Source: an uncultured Solibacteraceae bacterium
Lineage (GTDB): Bacteria; Acidobacteriota; Vicinamibacteria; Vicinamibacterales; SCN-69-37
Length of the DNA stretch: 64,000 nt
Direction: 5' to 3'
NCBI GenBank assembly: GCA_964573795.1
Contig: CAZNMF010000049.1
Location: 1,232-65,231 of the forward strand
Positions 4,784 to 64,000 of this stretch are shown here, in pieces; within the stretch, counting starts at the first letter, position 1, and each line of letters starts with the position of its first letter. The translations under genes and the position numbers were made by a program. The notes under the pieces were generated by a model, which saw only the letters and a list, made by a program, of their open reading frames with translations, had not been told where the DNA came from and searched no databases.

Positions 4784-6621
4784 TCGCGGACATGGATCGC
4801 GTCGACGTCATCGTGATCGGCGCCGGTCACGCCGGATGCGAGGCGGCATGGGCCGCCGCGCGCATGGGATGCCGCGTGGCGATCTGCACGCTGTCGATGG
4901 ACACCATCGCGCTGATGCCCTGCAACCCTGCGGTCGGCGGCACGGCGAAGGGCCATCTCGTGCGTGAGATCGACGCGCTGGGTGGCCTGATGGGCCACGC
5001 GATCGACGCGACGGGCATCCAGTTCAAGCTGCTCAATCGGAGCCGCGGACCCGCGGTGTGGTCGCCGCGCGCGCAGGCCGACAAGCGCCGGTATGGCGCG
5101 TGGGTGCGCGAGGCGCTGTCACGCGAGCCGAATGTGCGCTGGCTCATCGGCCGCGCGGGTCGGATCGTCGTCGATGACGGCCGCGTGACGGGGCTCGAGC
5201 TCGAGGATGGCTCGCGTATCGCGTGCCGCGCGCTCGTCATCACGACGGGCACGTTTCTGAACGGCCTGGTGCACGTCGGCGACGAGCAGCGGCCGTCGGG
5301 CCGCGCCGGCGAGCCGCCGACGCGCGCGCTCGCGGAGTCGCTGCGATCGATTGGCGTCGAGATGGGCCGGCTGAAGACGGGTACGCCGCCGCGGCTCGAT
5401 CGGCGCAGCATCGATTTCTCGCGCTTTCCCGAAGAACGGGGCGACGATCCGATCGTTCCCTTCTCGTTCATGTCGCCGCCGATCGCGCGCGAGCAGATCC
5501 CGTGTCATCTCGTCTACACGACCGAGCGGCTGCACGATCTCGTGCGCGACAACATCGGCCGATCGCCGCTCTACAACGGGCAGATCTCCGGCATCGGTCC
5601 GCGCTACTGCCCGTCGCTCGAGGACAAGGTGATGCGCTTCCCCGAGAAGGAGCGCCATCAGATCTTTCTCGAGCCGGAGGGCGTGGACGTCGACGAGATC
5701 TACGTGAACGGCCTGTCGATGAGCCTGCCGCGGGACGTGCAGGAGTCCATCGTGCACGCGCTGCCCGGCCTCGAGTCCGCGCGCGTGCTGCGGCATGCGT
5801 ACGCGGTCGAGTACGACTTCGTCCAGCCGACGGAGCTGCATCGATCGCTCGAGACCAAGCGTCTGCCAGGCTTGTTCCTCGCCGGCCAGATCAACGGCAC
5901 GTCCGGGTACGAGGAGGCCGCGGCGCAAGGGTTGATGGCCGGCATCAATGCGGCGCACGCGGTGCGCGGGGACGCGCCCGTCGTGCTCGGACGCGACCAG
6001 GCGTACATCGGGATCCTCGTCGACGATCTCGTCACGCGCGGATGTCTCGAGCCGTATCGCATGTTCACGTCACGCGCGGAGCATCGTCTGCGCCTGCGGA
6101 TCGACAACGCGGACCTGCGCCTGACGCCGATCGGCCGCGAGATCGGGCTCGTCGACGAAGCGCGGTGGCGATCGTTCGACGCGCGACGCGAGCGGCTCGC
6201 GCGCAATCTCGATCGCGCGGAGCAAACGCGCGTGGCGATCGACGGAGACACGACGACGGCCGCGCAGGCGCTGTCGCGGCCGCCGGTGACGCTGGAAGAC
6301 CTGCGCGCGGCGGGATTCGCGATCGAGCACGACGCGCGGCGTGGCGATCTGGACGCGGCGACGCTGACCGCGGAGCTGAAATATCGTGGCTATCTCAAGC
6401 GCCATGACGCACAGCTTGCGCGCACGCAGGCGGACGAGGCGCGACGGATTCCCGCGACGTTCTCTTACTCGGCGATTCCTGGGCTCTCGCGCGAAGTCGT
6501 GGAGCGGCTCACCCACGTGCGCCCGGAAACAATCGGCCAGGCCGCGCGGGTGCCGGGCGTCACGCCCGCCGCCATCGCCATCGTCGCCGCGCGCGTGTCG
6601 CGTTGGACGCCTGAGAGCTGA
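4780..6621 (+). CDS. mnmG: tRNA uridine 5-carboxymethylaminomethyl modification enzyme MnmG (GidA)
   Basis: Inner start MIADMDRVDVIVIGAGHAGCEAA... (FAD-binding GxGxxG). The rest of ORF 4444..6621 is typical GidA. ATGA overlap with mnmE. Confidence 0.95.
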   Translation: MIADMDRVDVIVIGAGHAGCEAAWAAARMGCRVAICTLSMDTIALMPCNPAVGGTAKGHLVREIDALGGLMGHAIDATGIQFKLLNRSRGPAVWSPRAQADKRRYGAWVREALSREPNVRWLIGRAGRIVVDDGRVTGLELEDGSRIACRALVITTGTFLNGLVHVGDEQRPSGRAGEPPTRALAESLRSIGVEMGRLKTGTPPRLDRRSIDFSRFPEERGDDPIVPFSFMSPPIAREQIPCHLVYTTERLHDLVRDNIGRSPLYNGQISGIGPRYCPSLEDKVMRFPEKERHQIFLEPEGVDVDEIYVNGLSMSLPRDVQESIVHALPGLESARVLRHAYAVEYDFVQPTELHRSLETKRLPGLFLAGQINGTSGYEEAAAQGLMAGINAAHAVRGDAPVVLGRDQAYIGILVDDLVTRGCLEPYRMFTSRAEHRLRLRIDNADLRLTPIGREIGLVDEARWRSFDARRERLARNLDRAEQTRVAIDGDTTTAAQALSRPPVTLEDLRAAGFAIEHDARRGDLDAATLTAELKYRGYLKRHDAQLARTQADEARRIPATFSYSAIPGLSREVVERLTHVRPETIGQAARVPGVTPAAIAIVAARVSRWTPES

Positions 6622-54335: not shown

Positions 54336-57287
54336 CTAGACGACAGCCGCTTCCGGCCTCTGGTGCGGCGCCTGAGACTGGCGGCGCGGCTGGCCCTGGT
54401 CGTGCGACGACGACCCATGGTGACGGCGCGTCCGGTCCGTCACGCGGCGGCAGGCCTCGCGGAACCGGACGGCATAGCCGTGCGCTTCCGGGCTGTCGAT
54501 CGGCGGCAGGCGCTGCCACGCGCCTTGCGCATCGCGGACGGCATCGGCCGCGGCACGCGACTTCGACTCCTCGGCGCCGCGTCCACCCATGGCATTGCTG
54601 GCAAAGGCCGACCGCAGCTTCGCCGCGAGCAGCTCCGCTTGCGACTGGTGCGCGACCTGCGGCTCGTCGACGTCGGCCGCGAGCCCTTCGACCCGCAACA
54701 CGAGCTTCTCCATCTTGTGGAGCACGGTGGCGGGGTCGAGGTCGGTTCCGGCGAACGACTCGGGGCGCTTGGACAGCAGCTGTCCGAGCGCATGCTGCCA
54801 ACGCTCGACGAGCACCTTCATGCCGGGCACGGGCACCGGCACGCTCTGGCTCCACGTCGCGCGCACGCGCTTGACCTGATCGCCGAGATCCGCCGGCACC
54901 TCTTCCAGTGCCGCCAGCGATTCGAGCTCGACGACGATGGCCTCGCGCTCGGCGAGCTTGGTGGCCAGGCCGATCTCATGACGATGGTGATAGCGCTCGA
55001 AGAAGCGATCGGCGGCGGCGCGGAAGCGCGTCCAGATCGCCTCGGACTTGTTCTTGCGCACTGGACCGATCGTCTTCCATTCGGCCTGCAGGCGTTTCAT
55101 CTCCGCGGCAGCGGCATCCCAATCGGTGGACTCGGCCAGCGCTTCGGCGCGCTCGCAGAGCGCTTCCTTGCGCGCCAGGTTGTCGGTCCAGACCTTCTTG
55201 CGATCGATGAGATCTTCGCGGCGGCGGGTGAAGAACGTGTTGCACGCCGCACGGAACCGCTGCGCCAGCGCGCGATCCTGATCGCCCGCGACGCGCCCGA
55301 GCGCCTGCCACGCGGCCTGCAGCTCCTGGAAGCGCGCGGCCGTCTTCGCCCAATCCGTGGACGAGACGAGCTGTTCGGCTTCTTCGACGATCGACGTCCG
55401 CTTCGAGGCGGATTCGGCACGCTCGGCGCGGCGCGCGGCGAAGTAGACCTCGCACCGCGCGCGGATGAAGTCGGTCGCCGTGCGGAAGCGATCCCAGAGA
55501 CGCTGCGCGCTCTGGCGCGGGGCCTCGGCGACCTGCTGCCATTCGGCGTGCAGCTCGCGCAGCGCGCGAGCCGTCGCCGCGAGATCCGACGCCTTGCCGG
55601 CCTCTTCTTCGACCTTGAGCGAGGCGACGATGGCCTCGGCCATCGAGATCAGTTGTTCCTGACGCTGCGCGTTGGCGAAGCGGCGCCATTCGTCGAGCTC
55701 GCGGAGCTCGTGGACGCGCGGGGCGATCGTCTCCTGCAGCGTGCGAAGTGCCGACGCGGCGCGATCGACATCGTGGCTCGCGCCGGTCTGCGCCGCGGCA
55801 TCGAGTCCCGCGGTGATGTCGCGCATCAACCGCTCGCCTTCGCGGAGCGTGATCGTCTCGGCCTCGGACACGCGGCGGGCGCGCTCCGTGAGACGGTGCA
55901 GGTGCGCGAGCGCCTCCTCGCGCGCTTTGGCCGCGTCGGCCTCGTGCGCGGCGTCGTGCTCCAGCCACACGGCCTCGACGGCCCGCAGGCGCGCAATGAG
56001 ATCCGTGGCCGGGCGCGAGGCCGTCTCGAGCGTGGCGGCAAGGCCGCGTGCCTCACGGCTGAGCGTCGTCCAGCGGGCGCGCGCCGCGGCGGCATCCTCG
56101 AGGGACGTCAAGCCTTCGGCCTCGACGACCAGCGCGTCGAGCAACGCGCGGGTCTGCTCCACCTGGGCGCCCAGCTCATGCCGCTTCCGGCACGCGGTCA
56201 CCGCCTTGGCGAATCGCTCTGCCAATCGGTCAGCCTCCGGGCCGTTGCCGACGAGCGGAAGCAGCGATCGCCACTCTTCTTCGATCGGAACCAACTGCGC
56301 AAGCACGTCGTCGCCGTCGAGCGTCTCGACGCGCTCGCAGAGCGCGATGCGCGTCGCGATGGCCTCGGCGCGGAGGCGCTGGCGATCGGCGAGCTCCTCG
56401 GCCTCGCGATCGCGGCGGACGAACGCCGCCTCGGCTGCGGCCGTGGCGCGCGAGAAACGATCGACGGCCGCTTCGTCGGAGACGCCGAGCGCGCGCCACG
56501 CGTCGATCAGGCGCGCCAGCTCGGCGCGTCCGACCGCGGCGTCGGTCAGCTCCGGCAGATGTTCGACGGCTTCGATCAGCGTGCTCTCACGGCGCTGGCG
56601 CTCGAGCGCGGCGGTCTGGCGCGCGGCTTCGGCGGCCTCCCGCTCCTGGATGATGGCGCGCGCGCGGCGGCTGACGGCTTTCTGATGGGCGCGGACTTCG
56701 ATCGACCGAAGCTGCGCGAGGTCGGTTTCCGGCGTCGCCACGCGCTCGAAGGCCGCCAGGGCCACGTCGCGATGCTCGCCGTGGAGGGCGACGTCGAGCA
56801 GCTCGTTGGCGTCGTTGACCCGCGCCAGCGCGGCGGCGGCCGTCGCCTCGTGCTTCGCGTGACGCGCGATGCTGCCGAGCGCGCGCTCGTCGGTGATCCG
56901 GGAGAGGGCTTCGGCGCGGACGGCCTCGCTGGCCTCGCTCTTGGCGATCGTCGACAGCCGGCGGCCGTCGGTGAGCGCGCGGACGGCCTCGAGCGGAAGG
57001 GCCAGGTCTCCGGTCTCGGCGCTTGCCGGCCGCGACGCGAGCGTCACGAGCCGATCGGCGGCTCGATCTCTGACCTCGGCGTCGGCGTCGCCGGCCGCGA
57101 TCCGCCCGAGCGACGCGGCGTCGCTCACCATGACGACGGCCGCACGCCTGACCTTGGCGTCCGGATCGGCCTCGGCGAGCGCGGTCAGCTCGGCGGGATC
57201 GTCGAGCTCCCGGATCGCCTCGAGGCGAACGGCAGGATCAGCGTGCTTCCAGCGGGGTTGCGGTTTGAGTTTGTCGAGGAGGCCCAT
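54336..57287 (-). CDS. Large DUF349-repeat protein with N-terminal HEAT-like repeats
   Basis: 983 aa. The N-terminus has repeated ...DPAVRLEAI...DPDAKVRRAAV...DAEVRDRAA... The body has about 9 repeats of the pattern ...EALCERAEAL...TDW...A..E...LQAEWK.IGPV......W.RF..A.D.FF.R., as in DUF349. Confidence 0.8.
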   Translation of the reverse strand: MGLLDKLKPQPRWKHADPAVRLEAIRELDDPAELTALAEADPDAKVRRAAVVMVSDAASLGRIAAGDADAEVRDRAADRLVTLASRPASAETGDLALPLEAVRALTDGRRLSTIAKSEASEAVRAEALSRITDERALGSIARHAKHEATAAAALARVNDANELLDVALHGEHRDVALAAFERVATPETDLAQLRSIEVRAHQKAVSRRARAIIQEREAAEAARQTAALERQRRESTLIEAVEHLPELTDAAVGRAELARLIDAWRALGVSDEAAVDRFSRATAAAEAAFVRRDREAEELADRQRLRAEAIATRIALCERVETLDGDDVLAQLVPIEEEWRSLLPLVGNGPEADRLAERFAKAVTACRKRHELGAQVEQTRALLDALVVEAEGLTSLEDAAAARARWTTLSREARGLAATLETASRPATDLIARLRAVEAVWLEHDAAHEADAAKAREEALAHLHRLTERARRVSEAETITLREGERLMRDITAGLDAAAQTGASHDVDRAASALRTLQETIAPRVHELRELDEWRRFANAQRQEQLISMAEAIVASLKVEEEAGKASDLAATARALRELHAEWQQVAEAPRQSAQRLWDRFRTATDFIRARCEVYFAARRAERAESASKRTSIVEEAEQLVSSTDWAKTAARFQELQAAWQALGRVAGDQDRALAQRFRAACNTFFTRRREDLIDRKKVWTDNLARKEALCERAEALAESTDWDAAAAEMKRLQAEWKTIGPVRKNKSEAIWTRFRAAADRFFERYHHRHEIGLATKLAEREAIVVELESLAALEEVPADLGDQVKRVRATWSQSVPVPVPGMKVLVERWQHALGQLLSKRPESFAGTDLDPATVLHKMEKLVLRVEGLAADVDEPQVAHQSQAELLAAKLRSAFASNAMGGRGAEESKSRAAADAVRDAQGAWQRLPPIDSPEAHGYAVRFREACRRVTDRTRRHHGSSSHDQGQPRRQSQAPHQRPEAAVV

Positions 57288-57357
57288 AAGGTCCGGGCCG
57301 CATATAAGAAAAGGCCGTGCCGTACCGCGAACGTCCGGGCAGGTGATCCATGAAACC

Positions 57358-57382
57358 GACTATCTGATAGTCCTGGCAGGAC
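57358..57382. promoter_or_regulatory. Two abutting perfect palindromes, GACTATC-T-GATAGTC and GTCCTG-G-CAGGAC
   Basis: Read directly, 70-95 nt upstream of the DUF349 start codon. Their 1-nt centres make RNA hairpins unlikely, so they look like DNA operator sites. Confidence 0.35.
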
Positions 57383-57639
57383 TTGTACCGGTTTCAGGCG
57401 TTCGGCCTCGACGACGACCGCGTAACCGAAATCCGGTCTTCTGAATCCCGAATCCAACGGACGGGAGCGGTACGTAGCACGCCGATGTGAAGGCCCTGTT
57501 GCGTCTACCGTCCGGCCGGGGGGAGAGCGGTTTCGAGCGCTGAAGCGCTCCGTTGCCCACGGGCGCGGGGTCACGCGAACAGCGCCCGGCGGTTGGGGCG
57601 GGAGTCCCTAGGGCCAAATGCTGGAAGCGCGGTGGGGGT

Positions 57640-59454
57640 CTACAGCAGCGCCTCGAGCCGCGTGACCAGCGCATCCAGCTGATCGATGACCGCCTGGACC
57701 GTCTCGGGCGAGCTGAGATCGACGCCCGCCGCCTTGAGCAAGGTCATCGGGTGATCGCTGCCGCCCGCCGACAGCAGATCGAGGTAGCGGCCGAGCGCCG
57801 CGTCGCGTGCGCCGGTGATCTCGGCGGCCAACTTCGCCGCCGACGCGAAGCACGTCGCGTACTGATAGACGTAGTACGGCGAGTTGAAGAAGTGCGGGAT
57901 GCGCGCCCACGTGATGGGCGTGAGGTCCTCGAGATCGACGGCGTCGCCGTAGTAGGCCTCGAAGCGCTCCTTGTAGAGCGCGTTCAGGACCTCGGAGGTG
58001 ATCGGCTCGTCGCGCTCGACGCGCGCGTGCGCCGCCAGCTCGAAGTCGGCGAACAGGACCTGCGTGTAGAACGTGCTCGTGATGTTGTCGATGGCGTGCT
58101 GCAGCAGGACGATCTGCTCGACCCGATCGGTCGCGCGCGCGAGCAGGTGCTCGAGCAGCAGCACCTCGCTCAGCGTCGACGGCACTTCGGCGACGAAGAT
58201 CGTGTAGTCCGAGTACACGAACGGCTGGCGCTCCTGCGACAGCATCGTGTGCATCGAGTGGCCCATCTCGTGCGCCAGTGTGAACACGTCGTCGAGCGTG
58301 TCGGCCCAGTTGAGCAGCATGTATGGATGGACGCCGTAGACCGGCGCCGAGTACGCGCCGCTGCGCTTGCCGTCGTTCTCGTAGACGTCGATCCAGCGCT
58401 CGCGGAAGCCGCGCCACATGCGGCCCTGATAGTCCGCGCCCAGCGGCGAGACCGACGCGACGATCGGCTCGAGGACGTCGGCGTACGCGTACCGGCGATC
58501 CCATTCGACGAGCGGGATCGAGAAGTCGTACGGATAGTAGCGATCGAGCCGCAGCGCGCGTCGGCGCAGGCGGTGATAGCGCCGCAGCGGCTCGGCGCCG
58601 GCTCGCGTCGTCGCGATGAGGTTGTCGACGACCGATCGCGGGATGTCGTTGCCGTGCAGCGCGGCTTCCAGCGTCGTCGCATAGCCGCGGGCGCGCGCGT
58701 GAAACCAGTCGCGCTGGCAGAGGCCGTGGTAGAGCGTGGCGTAAGTGTTCAGCGTCGCGGCGTACGGGCCGTAGTGGCCGAGAAACGCGGCGCGCCGGTC
58801 GGCCTGATTGCGGTTCGTCGCCAGCACGGCGCGGTACTGGCCGTAGGACATCGTCACGCGATCGCCCGTGCTCAGGGTGACCTCGGGGAATTTCGCGTCG
58901 GCCGTCGAGAGCGCGAGATACGCCTCGCCGGGCGCGTCCGACAGCCGCGCGGACAGCGACAGCAGGCGCTCGCCGCGCTCGTCGAGCACGTGCTCCTGCT
59001 GGCGGAACACTTCCTCGATCGCGAAGCGATAGACGGCCAGGCCGGCGTCCGACGCCATCCATGCGCGGACGGTCTCGAGCCCCAGCGCCAGCAACTCCGG
59101 GCTGAACCACGACGTCGCCTGCTGCCACCGCGCCATCAGCGCCTGAACCTGCTGCTTCCGCGCGTTGACGTCGTTGTCGCGCTGGTCCTCGTCGTACTTG
59201 AGCGACGGGTAGAAATAGACCTTGTACGCGAGCTGACCGAGGCGATCGCTCAGCTCGAACGCCTCGCGCAGCCGCGCGGCGCCCTGGGCCAACGTGCCCT
59301 TGAAGGCCGCGTAGCGATCGATGAGCGCGTCCAGCTCGGCGCGCGCGAGATCCCACGCGTCCCAGCTCGCGTAGATGTCGGAGAGGTCCCACTTGTCGGC
59401 GTCGCGGATGTCCGCGCGTGCGCGAGGACGCGTCGTTTCTGGTGCGGCCATCAC
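57640..59454 (-). CDS. pepF: Oligoendopeptidase F (M3B family)
   Basis: 604 aa with the zinc motif TLAHEMGHSMH and a downstream ...EVPS... glutamate. Confidence 0.9.
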   Translation of the reverse strand: MMAAPETTRPRARADIRDADKWDLSDIYASWDAWDLARAELDALIDRYAAFKGTLAQGAARLREAFELSDRLGQLAYKVYFYPSLKYDEDQRDNDVNARKQQVQALMARWQQATSWFSPELLALGLETVRAWMASDAGLAVYRFAIEEVFRQQEHVLDERGERLLSLSARLSDAPGEAYLALSTADAKFPEVTLSTGDRVTMSYGQYRAVLATNRNQADRRAAFLGHYGPYAATLNTYATLYHGLCQRDWFHARARGYATTLEAALHGNDIPRSVVDNLIATTRAGAEPLRRYHRLRRRALRLDRYYPYDFSIPLVEWDRRYAYADVLEPIVASVSPLGADYQGRMWRGFRERWIDVYENDGKRSGAYSAPVYGVHPYMLLNWADTLDDVFTLAHEMGHSMHTMLSQERQPFVYSDYTIFVAEVPSTLSEVLLLEHLLARATDRVEQIVLLQHAIDNITSTFYTQVLFADFELAAHARVERDEPITSEVLNALYKERFEAYYGDAVDLEDLTPITWARIPHFFNSPYYVYQYATCFASAAKLAAEITGARDAALGRYLDLLSAGGSDHPMTLLKAAGVDLSSPETVQAVIDQLDALVTRLEALL

Positions 59455-59501
59455 GCGATCATATGCGCGTCACCGGCAGCACGCGAACCCGGCGCGGGCG
59501 G

Positions 59502-60137
59502 CTACGTCGCGGCTGCCGTCGTGCGGCGAATCCACTGGGCCGCGGTGTCGAGCACGCGCTCGAAGGCGCGGCCATCCGGATCCTGACGCGCGGGCAGCGC
59601 CAGCGAATGGTCGCCGCCGTCGACGAGCGACAGCGTCGCCTGCGGCAACCACGTCATGAGCTCGGTCATCTCGTCCGGCCCGCCGAACGGATCGCGCGAG
59701 CCGTGCAGGAACAGGATCGGGCGCCCAACCGACGGCAGGTGCCGATCGCGGCGCTGCGCCGGGCGGCCGGGCGGATGGAGCGGATAGCCGAAACAGACGA
59801 GCGCAGCAGGCGCCGGTGTCAGCGCGCCGCCGGCGGTCACCTGTGTGGCGATGCGGCCGCCCATCGACTTGCCGCCGATGCAGAACGCCGCCGCGCCGGC
59901 GTGGGCGGCCGTGATCGTCCGCCACGCCTCGAGATAGGCCGCCTCGAGCACGGGATTGCGGTCGGGCAGCCGGCGTCCCGCGAGGCGATAGGGAAAATCG
60001 AACGTGACGATCGTCACGCCGCGCGCCGCGAGGCCGCGGCCGGCCCGCTGCATCCACGGATGGTCTTCGCCGGCTCCCGCGCCCGGTGCGAGCGTGAGCA
60101 GGGGGGCGCCCGCGTCTGCGGCCCGGTACGTGCGCAT
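59502..60137 (-). CDS. Alpha/beta hydrolase (dienelactone-hydrolase / KANL3-Tex30-like fold)
   Basis: 211 aa with nucleophile elbow GGKSMGG, ...FLHGSRDPFG... and ...GGDHSL... Confidence 0.7.
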   Translation of the reverse strand: MRTYRAADAGAPLLTLAPGAGAGEDHPWMQRAGRGLAARGVTIVTFDFPYRLAGRRLPDRNPVLEAAYLEAWRTITAAHAGAAAFCIGGKSMGGRIATQVTAGGALTPAPAALVCFGYPLHPPGRPAQRRDRHLPSVGRPILFLHGSRDPFGGPDEMTELMTWLPQATLSLVDGGDHSLALPARQDPDGRAFERVLDTAAQWIRRTTAAAT

Positions 60138-60163
60138 GCGCCGATTCTATCGGCTTGATCACG

Positions 60164-60181
60164 CTACATCTATGAATGTAG
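60164..60181. promoter_or_regulatory. AT-rich inverted repeat CTACAT-ctatga-ATGTAG (candidate ArsR-type operator)
   Basis: 6-bp perfect arms, ending 5 nt before the ATG of the ArsR-family gene. It sits inside a 48-bp divergent spacer that is unusually AT-rich for this genome. Confidence 0.35.
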
Positions 60182-60185
60182 ATTT

Positions 60186-61180
60186 ATGGATGTGACTGGC
60201 GTCTCGGCGTTGCTCCGGCTGCTCGGCGACGACACGCGGCTGCGGCTGCTTCGCCTGCTGTCGCTGGAGGCGCTGAACGTATCGGAGCTCACCGCCGTGC
60301 TCGGCGTGGCGCAGTCGGGCGTCTCGCGCCATCTCGGGCTGCTGCGCGACGCGGGCCTGGTCGCCGAAGAGCGCACGGGCGGGTACACGTGGTACCGCCT
60401 CGCGCCGGCCTTCGGCATGCCCGACGAGACGCGCGCGCCGCTCTGGACCTGGCTCCGCGACGAGTTCACCAAGGTCACGCCCGCGACGACGGCCGACGAT
60501 GCGCGGCTGCAGGAGGTGCGGCGGCTGCGGAAGGAAAGCTTTGCGGACCACGGCGCAGGCCAGGAGCGGGGACAGCTCGTTCCCGGCCGGAGCTGGGCCG
60601 CGTGGTCGCGCGCGCTCGCGCTGCTGCTGCCCGCCGTCGACGTCGCCGATCTCGGCTGCGGCGAAGGCTATCTGACCGTCGAGATGGCGCACTGGGCGCG
60701 TCGCGTGGTCGCCGTCGATCGCTCCACGTCCGCCCTTGCGCACGCCCGCGCGCTCGCGGCGCGCCGCAAGGCGCGCAACATCACGTGGAAGCGCGGCGAG
60801 CTGGAGCGGCTGCCCGTCGACGACGCCGCGATCGACGTGGCGCTGCTGTCGCAGGCGCTGCACCACGCCGAGCGTCCCGAGGCCGCGCTGGCCGAGGCGC
60901 ACCGCATCCTGCGTCCCGGCGGCCGCGTGCTCGTGCTCGATCTTCGGGAGCACGACGAGTCGTGGGTACGCGCGAAGCTGGGCGATCGATGGCTCGGTTT
61001 CTCCGAGGCGCGGCTGCACGAGCTGCTCGCCGGCGCGGGCTTCGAACGCGTCGTCGTCCGCGTGGGCGCGCGGACGCCTGGCGATGCGTTCACGGTGTTG
61101 ATCGCCGCCGGCACGAAGGCGCCAGCGGTGCCGGCGGATCGACGCGCCGGCGCCGGAACGAAGAGGAAGGAACGACACGA

Positions 61181-61184
<4 letters not shown>
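60186..61184 (+). CDS. ArsR/SmtB-family winged-HTH fused to a class I SAM-dependent methyltransferase domain
   Basis: N-terminus is ...[48 protein letters not shown]... The C-terminus has SAM motif [12 protein letters not shown] and ...[11 protein letters not shown]... Confidence 0.85.

Positions 61185-64000
<2,816 letters not shown>

Follow-up and report, generated by a model that had tools for sequence, protein, structure and literature searches.

How is metH, the gene for cobalamin-dependent methionine synthase, controlled in the Vicinamibacterales? The question is raised by a locus on contig CAZNMF010000049.1 of an uncultured bacterium of this order (assembly GCA_964573795.1), which we analysed as a window of 64,000 nucleotides (nt) whose numbering is used throughout. 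Near its end lies a gene for an ArsR-type protein with a methyltransferase-like domain, directly followed by metH. Judging from comparative sequence analysis, we consider it probable that this gene encodes a SahR-family repressor of a regulator-metH operon, with S-adenosylhomocysteine (SAH) as its likeliest signal. A first-pass annotation of positions 60138-61184 had proposed a protein-based sensor of the methyl cycle in this place. Position 60138, with which it opened the gene, does not belong to the regulator; the intergenic region that follows a divergent gene begins there.

The regulator joins an ArsR-type winged helix to a methyltransferase-like fold

The regulator gene and its parts, including those that bear on binding of S-adenosylmethionine (SAM), are the following.

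60192..61184, + strand: coding sequence of the predicted SahR-family regulator, counted from the conserved GTG 60192; the longest open reading frame (ORF) opens at the in-frame ATG 60186
60204..60407, + strand: ArsR-type winged helix-turn-helix (wHTH), amino acids (aa) 7-74, with the recognition helix AQSGVSRHL (Pfam HTH_5/HTH_20, NCBIfam NF033788)
60573..60605, + strand: 'lid' motif of 11 residues, aa 130-140, directly before SAM motif I and invariant in 24 close homologues
60633..61115, + strand: class I SAM-methyltransferase-like domain, the putative sensor, aa 150-310 (Pfam, AF2 fold)
60648-60668, + strand: SAM motif I, DLGCGEG, inside this domain; the acidic D178 closes beta-2

The ORF 60186..61184 (+) comprises 332 aa, and the fusion of an ArsR/SmtB wHTH to a class I SAM-methyltransferase fold, as seen in the first reading, was recovered by Pfam and by structure prediction, with NCBIfam supporting the ArsR part. 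At the N-terminus, Pfam HTH_5 covers aa 15-59 (7.5e-12), HTH_20 also matched, and the NCBIfam model 'metalloregulator ArsR/SmtB' scored 70.9 bits against a cut-off of 55. The C-terminal half matched Methyltransf_11/25/31 over aa 151-258 (1e-23 to 3e-20), and no enzyme-specific NCBIfam model came near its cut-off. An AlphaFold (AF2) model with a mean predicted local distance difference test score (pLDDT) of 82.7 shows the wHTH, a long connecting helix and a seven-stranded Rossmann fold. The wHTH with its helices and beta-wing is predicted at a pLDDT of 81-94 for residues 11-100 and of 73 for residues 1-10, the Rossmann fold reaches 90-98, and the segment 118-135 stays below 50. Residues D155, G157, G159, G161 and D178, which belong to the adenosyl-ligand pocket, are invariant across the regulator family. 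Moreover, Q43, S47, R48, H49 and L50 are invariant in the window protein, in a second paralog described below and in the Rhizobium and Leptospira proteins. The lid motif marks a PG[RKQ][ST]W branch of the family as opposed to an F[FY]xxxAxxW[DE] branch, and both types of segment before motif I are common among 150 cluster representatives. Soil and freshwater metagenomes are the source of the closest homologues (up to 79% identity), and the few with names belong to the order Vicinamibacterales of the Acidobacteriota; one named distant relative is from the Verrucomicrobiota.

Such an architecture might also belong to an active small-molecule methyltransferase that uses its winged helix for dimerisation only and lies beside metH merely through its use of the methyl cycle. 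In Rv2258c and in plant-type O-methyltransferases, the winged helix serves dimerisation. The nearest solved folds found by Foldseek are SAM/SAH-bound methyltransferases, the best matches being wHTH-methyltransferase enzymes, i.e. Rv2258c (PDB 5f8e, E 2e-18), TnmJ and RedM, and the SAM-binding motifs of the window protein are all intact. Rv2258c, the top match, shares the order of an N-terminal winged helix and a class I SAM/SAH-binding fold; it differs in being an enzyme with the winged helix as dimerisation module, in a template modelling (TM) score of 0.45 and in having no operator associated with it. The TM-scores to the three enzymes reach only 0.40-0.45, however, at a root mean square deviation of ~15 Å. 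The N-terminus exceeds curated ArsR cut-offs with an invariant recognition helix QSxVSRHL, and the model shows no additional substrate-binding cap apart from ~30 residues between beta-5 and beta-6. The precedent in this family is a regulator, according to the account of SahR in PMC4239095, and the conserved palindrome on the gene's own promoter with its compensatory register shift (see below) likewise speaks against an enzyme, a reading that we regard as very improbable. When PDB sequences were searched with the regulator, all matches were to ArsR or methyltransferase chains on their own, none over the full length.

Regulator and metH form a conserved two-gene unit

Downstream, the following features connect the regulator to metH.

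61181..64000, + strand: metH, cobalamin-dependent methionine synthase, 5' 2.8 kb of the gene, which runs past the window end
61181..61184, + strand: GTGA stop/start overlap of the regulator TGA (61182-61184) and the metH GTG (61181-61183)
61163..61171, + strand: putative Shine-Dalgarno-like sequence GAGGAAGGA for metH in the 3' end of the regulator gene, ending 9 nt before GTG 61181

The overlap of the regulator stop with the metH start as GTGA, noted early on, can be read directly from the sequence, and the identity of metH is established by NCBIfam NF007024 (1557 bits versus a cut-off of 1497), by TIGR02082 above its cut-off and by four Pfam domains including S-methyl_trans, Pterin_bind and B12-binding. 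For comparison we employed 80 metagenome loci and two loci from named Vicinamibacterales metagenome-assembled genomes, whose regulators are 59-74% identical to the window protein, giving 83 loci with the window. A survey of the adjacency, suggested by the first-pass annotation, found it conserved: of the 74 loci with enough DNA, the window counted, 73 have metH as the next gene on the same strand. Three further long contigs also show the regulator followed by metH. Among the 73 junctions, an NTGA overlap occurs in 18, a 1-nt overlap in four, another overlap in 16 and a gap of 0-15 nt in 25, so that 63/73 are tightly spaced; some of the other overlaps are probably start-codon miscalls. The long contigs hold nothing methionine-related after metH, and the operon thus consists of two genes.

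Two loci deserve mention in their own right. L015 (1510-2546) is the lone related locus with >1 kb of downstream DNA and without metH, and no convincing ORF is found there. The same metH reads as two ORFs, of 372 and 865 aa, in L091 (10996-14708) and as one intact gene of 1237 aa in another assembly, L092 (10996-14709); the split is probably an assembly frameshift rather than real.

No riboswitch accompanies this arrangement. Rfam models gave no match in the whole 64-kb window at the gathering score and none in 59400-61600 at E<=1, which agrees with the earlier impression that SAM and B12 riboswitches are missing at this locus.

The NCBIfam label 'metalloregulator' could be taken to mean an ArsR/SmtB repressor that senses metal or arsenic and is joined to an arsenite methyltransferase of the ArsM kind, and weak sub-threshold matches to arsenite methyltransferase models (53 bits versus a cut-off of 263) point the same way. 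Against it, the partner gene is metH in 73/74 loci, no ars genes lie nearby, and neither a CXC metal site nor the ArsM cysteine triad is present. The protein has one cysteine, C158, within SAM motif I; this cysteine count effectively refutes both a thiolate-based metal site and an enzyme of the ArsM type, and we consider the metal or arsenic reading hardly credible.

A conserved putative operator overlaps the predicted promoter

The control region upstream of the regulator contains the following elements.

60155..60160, + strand: putative -35 hexamer TTGATC (TTGCCA, TTGACA or CTGGACA in relatives)
60179..60184, + strand: putative -10 hexamer TAGATT, within the operator, found in 82/83 loci
60168..60183: predicted operator, register A, ATCTATGAATGTAGAT, of the form ATC-N10-GAT and here a perfect ATCTA-N6-TAGAT
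60176..60191: register B, a half-degenerate site ATGTAGATTTATGGAT, 8 bp downstream of register A
60164..60181: the inverted repeat CTACAT-N6-ATGTAG noted first, perfect and partly coinciding with the conserved operator

To align the promoters we used a nine-base core as anchor, which is present in 82 of the 83 loci and yielded 81 distinct promoters. In these 82 loci, a stretch of 75 nt spanning the start codon can be aligned free of gaps, and the columns upstream of about -40 are random and G+C-rich. Against this random background, ATC, AT, ATGTAGATT and AT.GAT stand out as invariant or nearly so, and the consensus reads TTGcca, 6 nt, cATCnATnnATgTAgATTtATaGAT and (A/G)TG. A TTG-containing hexamer is kept 17 nt upstream of TAGATT across the 81 promoters, the distance being 18 nt in the window, and the spacing of TAGATT to the -35-like box and to the start codon is fixed in 82/83 loci. 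TTGCCA or TTGACA followed after 17 nt by TAGATT reads as a sigma-70-type promoter, as judged from the conserved sequence.

The conserved palindromic operator overlaps this promoter in 82/83 loci. In register A, the three bases of ATC are kept in 81/81, 81/81 and 79/81 promoters, and A41/T42 and the TAGAT arm are likewise invariant. Registers A and B together form a 24-bp imperfect palindrome at 60168-60191, of which the window matches 9/12 palindromic pairs. An intact ATC-N10-GAT is found in register A in 58 of the 81 promoters, in the +8 register in 13, in both in one and in neither in nine. In the 13 relatives, ATG has become ATC while the GAT of register A is lost, which creates a perfect site in register B. 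Since the two changes are coupled, the site moves by 8 bp instead of vanishing, a compensatory shift that fits the prediction for a functional 16-bp unit. Comparing C47 with non-G50 gave 14/1 versus 6/60 (Fisher 3e-10), a p-value that overstates independence, as the shifted loci may be one clade.

Within the 64-kb window, 60168-60183 is the sole copy of the conserved operator. A scan of 392 kb of related loci gave four extra matches to the operator pattern, which we take as chance, all of them lying away from regulator promoters. The looser pattern ATCT-N8-AGAT occurs four times in the window against 0.34 expected. Its extra matches at 4955, 32020 and 60670 (the last inside the regulator gene) are G+C-rich inside, lack the conserved inner A/T positions and are probably chance as well.

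The first-pass annotation had placed an AT-rich inverted repeat, CTACAT-N6-ATGTAG, immediately upstream of the gene. Its presence stands: the exact repeat has one match in the window and none in 100 shuffles, and the GC content drops to 40-45% in this region versus 68% window-wide. With up to two mismatches, a match appears in 21/100 shuffles, so only the perfect repeat is non-trivial. As the conserved operator it does not hold, since relatives do not preserve the CTACAT left arm (the corresponding columns read GCATAT in L001) and the true site is shifted by ~4 bp.

The promoter alignment also moves the start codon, which had been read as ATG 60186. The column at 60192-60194, 7 nt after TAGATT, holds ATG in 50 and GTG in 31 of the 81 promoters, and most homologue gene calls open at the position equivalent to 60192. 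The column of ATG 60186 is usually ATA in relatives, and L002 has no in-frame ATG upstream of the conserved start. The conserved start in the window is therefore GTG 60192. No Shine-Dalgarno sequence is found between the -10 box and this start; together with the distance of 7 nt, this suggests that the regulator-metH mRNA is leaderless or nearly so.

Kinship with SahR and resemblance to SamR

SahR is a repressor of the ArsR family that responds to SAH and has a methyltransferase-like domain as its sensor (PMC4239095; PMC8877191; bioRxiv 10.1101/2022.10.17.512643). As summarized by Leyn et al. 2014 (PMC4239095), who cite Novichkov et al. 2014, it was described in 2014 for Desulfovibrio alaskensis and about 60 Proteobacteria. 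The same authors give a core regulon of sahR, ahcY, metH, metF and metK with a 20-bp palindromic operator. They also describe SamR of the Xanthomonadales, a ~30% identical SahR homologue encoded beside metH that uses a 24-bp palindrome and is suggested to respond to SAM, and name 'ATC-10 nt-GAT' as the core common to both operators. The sahR gene of Ensifer aridi measures 1023 nt (PMC8877191) and is matched in length by the regulator gene next to metF in R. leguminosarum, with 1026 nt including the stop. We recovered rhizobial and Leptospira comparison loci from a plasmid collection; their regulators stand in SahR-type gene contexts. The window protein is 32% identical over 323 aa (E 4e-34) to the R. 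leguminosarum regulator upstream of metF, and 31% over 316 aa (E 5e-45) to that of Leptospira interrogans, where the operon order is regulator-ahcY-ferredoxin-metH. ATC-N10-GAT is contained in the Leptospira regulator-ahcY-metH promoter (GGATATCAAGATATCTTGATATCC), in the rhizobial sahR-metF promoter (ATATCTTTATATCTTGAT) and, as TATCAAGATAGGATGATA, in the promoter of a regulator with 40% identity that is divergent from metK-ahcY.

Architecture, gene context and the operator frame thus place the window gene in the SahR family. Like SahR, it combines an ArsR wHTH with a SAM-methyltransferase-like sensor, has ATC-N10-GAT in a palindromic operator at its own promoter, as fits autoregulation, has metH, a core target, as its partner and stands in place of SAH/SAM riboswitches. 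It differs in its occurrence in Acidobacteriota, in the inner operator bases (ATCnAT..ATGTAGAT versus ATATCA-N8-TGATAT of SahR), in the PGRSWAAW segment before motif I, in a promoter that looks leaderless and in the handling of ahcY by a separate paralog in this lineage. The resemblance to SamR, which is no more than a resemblance, lies in a gene beside methionine synthase, a 24-bp palindrome with ATC-10nt-GAT and ahcY outside the regulon; SamR has a large regulon (metB, metE, metF, metK, metX, hom), whereas here a regulator-metH operon is seen. The idea of a protein sensor in front of metH was hence right in kind but not new, as the SahR/SamR system is already published.

SAM/SAH feedback on methionine and SAM-cycle genes is also exerted by the SAH, SAM-II/SAM-SAH and SAM-I riboswitches, by MetJ and by McbR. 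These are RNA sensors or unrelated folds, MetJ being a ribbon-helix-helix and McbR a TetR-type protein, and none of them is present at the locus. A literature search for SahR in Acidobacteria gave false matches only.

The 40%-identical regulator, a PGRSW-type protein in a cluster of 152 sequences, is found in L095-L097 (3718-5930), where the 116-bp spacer between the regulator and metK-ahcY holds a classical TATCA-N8-TGATA site. The gene of a 49%-identical relative in L094 (4960-5948) is likewise preceded by a leaderless-style TAGATATG promoter, with ATCACTTGATATAGAT as an ATC-N10-GAT site, and no metH or other methionine gene lies within 5 kb of it.

A second paralog precedes ahcY

In L048, an ahcY gene lies close to the regulator and has neither a metH-type operator nor a riboswitch upstream. 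We looked up four Vicinamibacterales-type ahcY genes; in front of each lies another gene for an ArsR-methyltransferase protein, 313-323 aa long. The ahcY-linked paralog occupies the following positions.

L087, 2951-3901: ahcY-linked paralog
L088, 3057-3998: ahcY-linked paralog
L089, 2972-3943: ahcY-linked paralog
L090, 2885-3847: ahcY-linked paralog
L057, 3-425, - strand: ahcY-linked paralog

This paralog shows 38-39% identity with the window protein and 31-34% with the rhizobial one. It shares with the window gene the two-domain architecture, the ATC-N10-GAT frame and the same genomes, L087 and L057 carrying both paralogs on one contig. It differs in having ahcY as the next gene and in the inner operator bases, ATCCG-N6-CGGAT (N7 in L090) being present at 5/5 promoters. 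Its recognition helix, PQSTVSRHLK, differs from that of the window protein (AQSGVSRHL region), and the segment before SAM motif I is FFxxxAxxWDxxR instead of the 11-residue lid. In a rough neighbour-joining (NJ) tree without support values, the window protein groups with PG-type proteins; the ahcY-linked paralog joins the regulators of Rhizobium and Leptospira. Judging from the segment types and this placement, the paralog pair looks ancient and not like a recent duplication. As a marker of a ligand switch, the PGRSWAAW segment is weakened, because a PGRSW-type relative adjoins metK-ahcY.

Upstream of ahcY, L048 (1290-1400, - strand) and L089 (3944-4000) contain repeated CTTTCGTG / TTCGTGCTTTCGTG units, and L048 has an inverted repeat, CCACGAACACACGAAGA ... 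TCTTCGTGCTTTCGTG, flanking TAGATTT. They may represent either a structured leader or a site for a protein. Rfam gave a single chance match on the L048 ahcY leader, CRISPR-DR20, at 19 bits versus a gathering score of 42 (E 0.35).

A model for repression of the regulator-metH operon

With this information at hand, we propose that the ArsR winged helix, presumably as a dimer, would bind the 16-bp ATC-N10-GAT site at 60168-60183 and thereby cover the -10 box TAGATT downstream of the -35-like box. Since the operator lies over the gene's own -10 box, the bound protein would exclude RNA polymerase and shut the two-gene operon, which is the classical geometry of repression by occlusion. Regulator and metH would be carried on one, probably leaderless, transcript starting at or near GTG 60192 and be translationally coupled via the GTGA overlap. 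The C-terminal methyltransferase Rossmann fold would be retained as an adenosyl-ligand pocket. Accumulating SAH would bind the regulator and cause its release from DNA, metH and more regulator would be made, and the induced methionine synthase would pull homocysteine back to methionine. By analogy with Desulfovibrio SahR, SAH is the most likely signal, and we infer that it is about twice as likely a ligand as SAM. The sensor role in the methyl cycle that had been proposed at the outset is well supported by the conserved adjacency, the operator, the invariant SAM motifs, the homology to regulators in SahR context and the lack of a riboswitch, and DNA binding, ligand binding and repression by the window protein are predicted on the same grounds.

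Several observations weigh against this model. The -35/-10 pair of the window itself scores low (8/12, with an 18-nt spacer), and a simple scan of 59900-61400 for sigma-70 promoters and terminators made no call; the promoter assignment thus rests on conservation, not on consensus score. Identity to the rhizobial protein is only ~31%, that protein being assigned to SahR by its gene context, and ahead of motif I the window protein has another type of segment than its rhizobial and Leptospira counterparts. Moreover, ahcY, the most conserved SahR target, lies outside this operator in L048 and has its own paralogous regulator, so the regulon of the window protein may be metH only and its ligand may differ from SAH.

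The last point leads to the same architecture with the opposite logic, in which the window protein would be a SAM-sensing co-repressor of metH and the ahcY-linked paralog the SAH sensor. MetJ provides a precedent for SAM as co-repressor. Two deeply diverged paralogs, one with ATCnA..TnGAT as operator at metH and the other with ATCCG-N6-CGGAT at ahcY, are most easily explained by different signals, and it is the ahcY-linked paralog, not the window protein, that groups with the rhizobial and Leptospira regulators and has FFxxxAxxWD. SamR, too, lies beside metH with a 24-bp palindrome and a suggested response to SAM, as described in PMC4239095. On the other hand, the 40%-identical PGRSW protein is divergent from metK-ahcY, a classical SAH-type context, and metH is a core member of the SAH-responsive SahR regulons outlined in the same source. 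No sequence feature discriminates SAM from SAH. Weighing both sides, we regard SAM co-repression as rather unlikely and prefer an SAH-responsive repressor.

Genes next to the operon

On its other side, the control region is bordered by a divergent gene.

59502..60137, - strand: Abhydrolase_11 gene (Pfam PF20408, 5e-45), with its start codon 30 nt from the operator

An Abhydrolase_11 gene adjoins the regulator, usually divergently, in 29 related loci, and in about two thirds of these it lies within 250 nt of the operator. Speculatively, it may share the regulator's control region. Further away, the window holds genes for a DUF349 protein (983 aa) and a Peptidase_M3 protein (604 aa) at 54336-59454 (- strand), which are syntenic with L091/L092 and thus support placing the window in that lineage.

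Implications for methyl-cycle control in Vicinamibacteria

The regulator family itself is already known, having been described and partly tested experimentally in Proteobacteria, and our findings open no new class of mechanism. New are the occurrence in this phylum, the corrections to operator, promoter and start codon, a design that looks leaderless, the shift between registers and the coexistence of two paralogs, each with an operator of its own. The database label 'metalloregulator' is misleading for this protein. The 81 aligned promoters can be read as a natural mutagenesis experiment on a promoter and its operator, an unusually clean one that includes the register shift, and ATCnA..TnGAT and ATCCG..CGGAT would provide an orthogonal pair of SAH/SAM-type sensors and operators, possibly of use as biosensors.

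Our analysis extends SahR-type methyl-cycle control from Proteobacteria to the Vicinamibacteria, an abundant and barely cultured soil lineage for which a single metagenome scan returned several hundred related loci. As a tentative and rather unlikely extension, methyl-cycle control in Vicinamibacterales might be split between two anciently diverged paralogs with operators that do not overlap, the ahcY-linked one reading SAH and the metH-linked one reading SAM or another adenosyl compound, the latter from a leaderless promoter whose operator hops by 8 bp between registers with one site always left intact. If true, this split would constitute a protein circuit with two inputs by which the cell would gauge the SAM/SAH ratio, i.e. 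its 'methylation potential'.

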